Positions 29,503-30,815 of a stretch of DNA of 30,815 nt are shown here, piece after piece (the stretch's first letter is position 1; each line of letters opens with the position of its first letter). A model generated the notes under the pieces. It was given only the letters and a program-made list of their open reading frames with translations, searched no databases and was not told the origin of the DNA. The translations under genes were made by a program, and so were the position numbers. Location of the stretch: the IMG/VR virus record IMGVR_UViG_2531839668_000005; one strand, 5' to 3'. The DNA comes from a virus (taxonomy: Duplodnaviria > Heunggongvirae > Uroviricota > Caudoviricetes).

Positions 29503-29530
29503 GGAGTCAGAATATCTGACTCCGTTTTTT
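29503..29530. terminator. bidirectional Rho-independent terminator
   Basis: GGAGTCAG ... CTGACTCC perfect inverted repeat followed by TTTTTT, between convergent genes. Confidence 0.75.
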
Positions 29531-30310
29531 CAAGTAAGCTGATAACTATCGAATGTTACTATTTCCTCATCTAGCCATATGTTTATTTCCTGTAATCTTT
29601 TTTGCAACGGTAATAACTCATTACGAACAAATACTTTACTAGCCTTCTCCACATCCCCAAACCCCCCAACATTATTCGGCATAATCCCCATCATTTGTGG
29701 CGGCACACGATGCGCTGCCATCATGTCATCCCGACTCACGTTCTTGATGTTAAGAAATTCATCCTTCGCCGCGACTTCTGACAATGGGATGATCTGAAGC
29801 CCGTCTTTTTTACCGTTAGGCGAGTACATAAACAGGTTACGGAAGTTACCAGGACCTTTGGCACTTTTCATCGCGTTGCGGAGGTTGTTCACATCCTCCT
29901 GATTCTGCGCGGCATCGGTCATGTACATGATGAAGCCTGCATGGCTGCCGTTGATGTAATACTTACGGCGGAACAGCGTGGCGGACTCGTTGAGCAGGGC
30001 TGACGGAATGGCAGAAAGATAACCGGGCAGGCCGTAGATCTCCTGGTTGATGTCCGGTTCCATCAGATGAAAAATGCTGCCTTTCGTGAACTGATACGGC
30101 TGCGTAGTCATGCCGTATTGCACAAACCAGTAGGTATCCAGGTCTAATCCGCGTCGGGTGTATTTTGCCAGCGCAGGCTCAAGAGCGATGACCTCTCCGA
30201 AGCGGTTCGTGCGTTTTTCCAGGTAGGCGTTACCAAAAACCAGATAGTCCTGCACAAAACGCGAAAAAGCCTGCTGGCTGAGCAGCGGGTGAGGGATGTA
30301 GGTGCTGGTC
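29530..30310 (-). pseudogene. P2-family portal protein gene, apparently 5'-truncated
   Basis: C-terminal roughly 260 aa look portal-like (e.g. HRVPPQMMGIMPNNVGG); the first ~105 aa of the track ORF are antisense to a tail-fibre ORF and are not portal sequence. Confidence 0.5.
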
Positions 30311-30313
30311 AGA

Positions 30314-30815
30314 ATGTTGCATTTCACTGCGATCGGTGACCCGAAATTCAGTACCACCATTAACAATGCGCTGGCACTAAAAGCACCGCTGTCGAGTCCG
30401 GCACTCACCGGAACGCCAACAGCACCTACTGCGGCACAGTCGGTCAACAATACACAGATTGCCACTACAGCTTTTGTGAAATCAGCGATTGCAGCAATGG
30501 TGGGTTCTGCACCTGCGGCACTGGATACATTGAACGAACTGGCGTCGGCACTGGGGAATGATCCGAACTTTGCCACGACAATGCTTAATGCGCTGGCAGG
30601 TAAACAACCGCTGGACAATACGCTTACCAATTTGAGTGGAAAGGATGTAGCTGGTCTTCTCGCATACCTTGGTTTGGGAGAAGCGGCAAAACGGGATGTG
30701 GGGACAGGGGAAAATCAGATACCGGACATGGCCTCTTTTGCCAGTGGTGATGGATGGATGAAATTACCCAACGGGAAAATCCTGCAATATGGTCGTGGTG
30801 CGGTTACGCCGACAT
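30314..30815 (+). CDS. phage side-tail-fibre protein fragment (partial, runs off the window end)
   Basis: Plus-strand translation ...[80 protein letters not shown]... is the conserved segment of lambdoid/T-even-like tail fibres as recalled; in-frame stop at 30299-30301 and ATG at 30314. Confidence 0.6.

Follow-up and report, generated by a model that had tools for sequence, protein, structure and literature searches.

At the right end of a 30,815-nt stretch of tailed-phage DNA (IMG/VR record IMGVR_UViG_2531839668_000005; the whole stretch is called the window below), a minus-strand reading frame resembling a phage portal gene overlaps a tail-fibre coding sequence on the plus strand, which raises the question of how a P2-family prophage came to join these two genes back to back, and what was lost when it did so. 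The initial annotation had proposed a defective 186-like prophage that lost its morphogenetic genes by deletion or by recombination with another prophage. We conclude, with a probability of about 0.9, that one internal deletion of ~10.8 kb in a Fels-2/186-type prophage at ssrA, arising by illegitimate recombination, accounts for the arrangement.

Positions 29400–30815 are 100% identical to NZ_CP051001.1, the genome of Escherichia coli O157:H16 str. 98-3133, and this whole stretch is present in one of 5,426 complete E. coli genomes. Over positions 9406–30815, the identity to the same record is 99.96%, with six 1-base indels and two mismatches, and an earlier assembly version is the probable source of the window sequence. 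Relative to the current RefSeq record, some ORF boundaries are displaced by 1 to 2 nt.

Remnants of a portal gene and a tail-fibre gene

The ORF list gives the minus-strand frame 29530–30630 as a 366-aa protein with a TTG start. Its portal character is confined to the C-terminal three quarters, a restriction to the C-terminal part that the initial annotation had noticed: Pfam PF04860 (Phage_portal) matches residues 119–349 only (63.3 bits against a cut-off of 39.1), and in a tblastn search against phage genomes only residues 94–366 align, at up to 94% identity and with phage Cartapus and Klebsiella P2-like phages as the best portal matches; the same search found no homologue for residues 1–93. 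At the nucleotide level, 29530–30339 is 95.3% identical to a part (L002 20131–20940) of the intact portal gene of a sister prophage in E. coli 1002W03 (L002), and the similarity stops at 30339, so it does not reach the end of the ORF at 30630. Measured against the complete reference gene (L002 20131–21159, ~342 codons), the portal (gpQ) remnant at 29530–30339 on the minus strand consists of codons 74–342 plus the stop codon, and lacks the first 73 codons together with its own start codon. Its pseudogene status was already known from RefSeq, in which the portal gene is annotated as a pseudogene without its N-terminus. The rest of the ORF (30340–30630, minus strand) is a spurious N-terminal extension, namely an antisense reading of the tail-fibre fragment. 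Since the antisense frames of the intact H gene contain open stretches of 131–181 codons, this 97-codon extension is not meaningful. The neighboring TIR gene is separated from the portal 3' end by a bidirectional terminator-like hairpin (29503–29523), whose 9-bp stem leads into a T run on either strand.

On the plus strand, the tail-fibre (gpH) remnant begins at 30338, at Asp240 of a ~513-aa protein, and runs past the end of the window (30815) to window-equivalent position 31042. It is 94.2% identical to L002 31708–32054 and 97.7% identical to the gene of another relative, L003. When the plus strand is translated from the ATG at 30314, the product matches phage tail-fibre proteins from residue 9 (30338), with 98% identity over residues 9–112. 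The earlier recognition of a fibre segment on this strand is thereby borne out, but its proposed start at that ATG is not: the ATG lies 23 nt to the left of the junction, inside portal-antisense sequence, and together the in-frame ATG and the eight codons MLHFTAIG (30314–30337, plus strand) are a fortuitous addition of portal-antisense DNA. The full 242-aa fibre fragment retains the shaft repeats and a C-terminal Gp53-like_C domain (residues 150–241, 6e-12), and is accordingly assigned to gpH. What it lacks is the N-terminal, baseplate-attaching PF12571 Phage_tail_fib domain, found at residues 1–150 in the complete H protein of the sister. No sigma-70-like promoter was found within 29400–30815. 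Selection for an expressed in-frame fibre fragment was considered and rejected: there is no consistent upstream start (two junctions read in frame) and no promoter-like site. In strain JNE082640 (L003 4285–5706), whose prophage is otherwise complete, H is annotated as a pseudogene without its C-terminus, with a separate Gp53-like ORF after it; either a frameshift or an influence of the invertible segment (described below) on the annotation may lie behind this call.

The junction and the missing interval

We placed the junction by a base-level three-way alignment of the window, the portal side of L002 and the H side of L002. Portal homology extends to 30339 (L002 20940) and fibre homology starts at 30337 (L002 31708); the parents share the TGA at 30337–30339 alone, and no longer homology. 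Read on the minus strand, this 3-nt microhomology gives TCA, the Ser codon in the portal sequence ...S-P-I-A-V-K-C-N; read on the plus strand, it overlaps the codon for Asp in the fibre motif N-D-P-K-F. In other words, a 5'-truncated portal gene does abut an opposite-strand tail-fibre fragment, as had been claimed, with the switch at 30337–30339 rather than at about 30310.

Compared with the intact sister prophage, which is 94–98% identical and not the true parent, so that the deleted length and gene content are estimates by synteny, the missing interval corresponds to L002 20941–31707, or 10,767 bp. On the portal side it holds portal codons 1–73 and the terminase, scaffold, capsid and head-completion genes, and the rest comprises the lysis, tail-completion and baseplate genes and tail-fibre codons 1–239. 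Since the interval offers thousands of repeats longer than these 3 nt, plain microhomology fails to explain why these two points were chosen.

The element and its intact relative

A copy of the 45-nt core of the ssrA 3' end at 18324–18368 (attL) marks the left end of the prophage, and the core (45–46 nt) is repeated at the ssrA 3' end at 31707–31752 of the source-genome locus (L001); the att repeats enclose a single element of ~22.8 kb. According to the source genome annotation, the first att copy is followed by a hypothetical gene and the integrase, CI, Apl-like, CII and Fil genes, and then by genes for DUF5347, DUF2732, a TraR/DksA-like protein, Dam, replication endonuclease A and a DinI/Tum-like protein. 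Next come four cargo genes, the portal pseudogene, the fibre fragment and a tail-fibre assembly gene; an inverted tfa gene, an alternative fibre C-terminus and a serine recombinase gene; and the genes for sheath, tube, E, E', tape measure, U, D, ogr and a BRCT-domain protein, up to the second att copy in the ssrA 3' end. In that annotation, the genes for the repressor, integrase, replication, cargo and tail shaft are all intact, in line with the proposal that the lysogeny/replication module and the cargo had been kept. Terminase, scaffold, capsid, lysis and baseplate genes are annotated neither between the remnants nor elsewhere in the element; the source genome annotation thus confirms that no terminase, capsid or scaffold genes follow the portal, and that the lack of morphogenetic genes, which the sister has, makes the prophage defective. 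This loss is less complete than the initial annotation implied: the head, lysis and baseplate genes are gone, but sheath, tube, E/E', tape measure, U, D and ogr remain, as do the tail-fibre assembly genes, an invertible cassette and its invertase, all found beyond the window.

A second island stands in tandem at the ssrA att site (~9400–18300; L001 1–8900). It carries an integrase-domain gene, a large serine recombinase gene, a DUF4928 gene, IS3 copies and a pair of ParB-like genes; the sister strain has a P4-like satellite at this position instead.

The sister prophage is intact and integrated at the same ssrA site, and carries between the same flanks the genes for portal, terminase ATPase, scaffold, capsid, terminase endonuclease, head completion and X, followed by holin, lysozyme, LysB/LysC, R, S, V, W, J, I and H. 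The left arms of the two elements are 97.7% identical and the right arms 94–97%, with several identical proteins, including tube, E, E' and U. Among phages, the nearest are Klebsiella P2-like phages, Salmonella RE2010 and Fels-2, with 85–96% identity over ~70% of 18700–30339. Synteny, DNA identity and the att repeats place the element among the Fels-2/186-type prophages of the P2 family at ssrA. The earlier label "186-like" fits the lysogeny module; overall, Fels-2/RE2010-type and Klebsiella P2-like phages are nearest.

The cargo region (27309–29497) contains a 71-aa ORF, a 280-aa ORF and the genes for a 138-aa multi-TM membrane protein and a 200-aa TM-TIR protein, the last two of which (28478–29497, plus strand) are retained beside the portal remnant. 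The TIR protein matches Pfam TIR_2 (3.6e-17), and PADLOC returned generic TIR matches only for the cargo. The cargo sits at the gpA–gpQ defence hotspot of P2-like phages (PMC9122126) and is similar to a system of TIR and transmembrane proteins in P2-like phage AC1 for which protection against lambda was shown (PMC9122126).

The fibre region also carries a recombination switch. Its left crossover site (cix/hix-like, 30657–30683) is one of two 27-nt inverted repeats, 1,875 nt apart and 81% complementary, and its partner at L001 23160–23186 adjoins the recombinase gene annotated at L001 23242–23808. The fibre segment is oriented opposite to that of the sister prophage. With inverted sites, alternative fibre and tfa cassettes, a recombinase gene and both orientations observed, it belongs to the Gin/Cin/Pin/Hin-type invertible switches and, as judged from its sequence, this Cin/Pin-type tail-fibre switch (30657–30683; L001 21258–23186) apparently survives intact in a defective prophage. 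A metagenome contig carrying the same junction (L020) ends precisely at the left crossover site, which hints at mixed cassette orientations in that metagenome sample.

Origin of the junction

Because both arms of the element resemble one intact prophage at this ssrA site to a similar degree, and share identical proteins with it, recombination with a second prophage is not needed to account for this locus, and the fibre fragment is the prophage's own gene rather than a piece of another prophage. The competing half of the initial proposal, in which two P2-like prophages recombined, for example via their tail-fibre genes, so that the right arm from the fibre fragment to ogr came from another phage, could draw on the abundance of such sequences: 1,898 genomes match 30250–30815, in up to 8 places per genome, fibre repeat motifs are common to many prophages, and the sister has a different variable Gp53-like cassette. 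We nevertheless regard it as very improbable, since the portal side and H share no homology beyond 3 nt, which leaves no room for homologous exchange, and since the att repeats flank one element. An assembly artefact in the source genome has even less to commend it and strikes us as extremely improbable. The presence of the junction in only one complete genome, and the six 1-base indels relative to the current RefSeq record, a sign of an error-prone earlier assembly, would fit such an artefact; however, the junction has no repeat able to mislead an assembler, and misassembly is disfavored by the identical junction in the revised closed genome, in an IMG/VR contig (L009) and in the metagenome contig. 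Of the two causes that had been offered, the single deletion is by far the more probable.

The single deletion would have proceeded as follows. After integration of a Fels-2/186-type (P2-family) prophage in the ssrA 3' end, illegitimate recombination, RecA-independent and at the level of microhomology, would have joined the TGA in Q to the TGA in H. With Q reading leftward and H rightward, the outcome is a tail-to-body fusion that retains the 3' 810 nt of Q on the minus strand and the 3' 705 nt of H on the plus strand. Without start codons and without the Ogr-dependent late promoters, and barring read-through transcription, both fragments would be silent, dead remnants; the late promoters driving Q and H presumably lay in the deleted interval, as the P2 late-operon organization would have it. 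The element would be unable to package DNA, to build heads or baseplates or to lyse the cell; it keeps integrase, CI/Apl/CII/Fil, Dam, gene A and the Tum-like gene, along with its defence-type cargo, the genes of the tail shaft and the invertible fibre cassette. Since the terminase, capsid, lysis and baseplate genes are gone, we infer that it can no longer be induced to form virions or to lyse its host.

For annotation purposes, neither the 366-aa ORF nor the ATG-initiated fibre ORF is a gene, and the prophage should be scored as defective. The loss of every lysis and capsid gene, with the repressor, integrase, replication genes and TIR-type cargo all kept, is the pattern expected of retention for immunity or defence. 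In sum, this is an ordinary defective P2-family prophage with a single illegitimate deletion, a case of ordinary prophage decay, and a recurrent breakpoint in the fibre repeat is its sole feature worth a wider survey.

A recurrent end-point in the tail-fibre repeat

The deletions in the window prophage and in those of E. coli strains PE15 and B2C all stop at the corresponding NDP(K/N)F codon in the fibre repeat, and each does so at a TGA (window 30337–30349; L004 12727–12745; L005 13536–13555). With a slash marking the join, the window junction reads ...CGGTGA/CCCGAAATTC and lies in the first fibre repeat, whereas the other two lie in the second, PE15 joining the portal gene (...GGCTGA/TCCGAACTTT) and B2C the terminase gene (...CGCTGA/CCCGAACTTT). 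The left end-points differ (20940, 20882 and 21793 in L002 coordinates), and all three intact left sites read G(C/G)TGAGCNG and all three fibre sites AATGAYCCG. The PE15 and B2C prophages, which belong to the same family as the element described here, are 91–97% identical to each other, carry different cargo and are integrated between rcdA and ybjL; the three deletions are independent.

The number of such cases did not grow when the search was extended. Of five further junctions examined in related prophages with deletions, four are at other positions and have microhomologies of 2–10 nt; the fifth is that of L018 (ACTA/TCCGAA). Queried with a longer sequence for wider gaps, the search yielded two more deleted prophages, L018 and L019, and the L019 junction joins P to J at a TT microhomology unrelated to the fibre-repeat motif. 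Pattern scans returned the window junction once plus four intact fibres in IMG/VR, five chance matches in unrelated genes in GTDB genomes, and the window junction once in metagenomes, with no new independent case in any of the three. The resulting set of n=3 comes from a search biased towards portal-to-H joins.

The 9-mer CCGAAATTC directly to the right of the window junction (30341–30349) also occurs in the att core at 18324–18368, and could be a coincidence or the trace of a secondary-site integrase event. Several specific activities were tried as explanations and rejected. For an invertase acting on a quasi-site, the junction sequences are unlike the cix-like site. For the integrase acting on a secondary site, the portal side bears no resemblance and the PE15 and B2C att cores are unrelated to the motif. 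For nicking by the A protein (HUH) at pseudo-origins, the GCTGAGC at 25127 lies in the coding region of the HUH motif and is not a known origin.

More generally, the deletions might have been targeted by a site-preferring activity at AATGAYCCGAA (N-D-P) and G(C/G)TGAGC sites, be it a nuclease, a topoisomerase, the phage A protein, or an integrase or invertase on secondary sites. Three independent junctions of like form with different left end-points, left sites that all share TGAGCNG and right sites that all share TGAYCCG, the occurrence of two of them in prophages only 91–97% identical with other cargo and another att site, and the 9-mer common to the right side of the junction and the att core speak for this; we nevertheless consider it unlikely, given that there are three cases from a biased ascertainment, that IMG/VR, GTDB and metagenomes added no further independent example, that four of the five other junctions lie elsewhere, and that neither the cix-like site nor the PE15/B2C att cores resemble the motif. 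The stronger proposition, that the N-D-P codons (AATGAYCCGAA) form a preferred break or rejoining point that repeatedly seeds deletions to non-lytic, defence-carrying remnants, is a shade more doubtful still; if true, it would imply a sequence-directed activity and not random decay. AATGAYCCGAA in the fibre repeat may nonetheless be a deletion hotspot, with three cases, and only if upheld in a larger survey would the recurrent end-point represent a non-random route of prophage domestication.

Comparison with known P2-family phages and prophages

The element is most like Fels-2 and RE2010 (Felsduovirus, Peduoviridae), with which it shares the gene order int-CI-Apl-CII-Fil...Dam-A-Tum-like-cargo-Q, an invertible tail fibre adjoining a serine recombinase gene and, together with related E. 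coli and Klebsiella P2-like prophages, integration in the ssrA 3' end. It differs from them by the absence of the Q(5')-P-O-N-M-L-X-holin-lysozyme-LysBC-R-S-V-W-J-I-H(5') block, by its length of ~22.8 kb instead of ~33.5 kb, and by its cargo. Coliphages 186 and P2 are more distant than the Fels-2 group and use a different att site; the element resembles them in its 186-type lysogeny and early genes, in its P2-type late-gene organization and in the cos-proximal gpA–gpQ cargo hotspot (PMC9122126). Among prophages in a similar state, those of PE15, B2C, E423, Z1323HEC0011 and UR21/11-869 likewise have internal deletions of head, lysis and baseplate genes; their lysogeny modules and cargo survive, as do parts of their tail modules, and in PE15 and B2C the deletion also ends in H at the repeat motif. 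Compared with the element described here, these five have other left end-points, lie between rcdA and ybjL and carry other cargo, and some of them have extra deletions.
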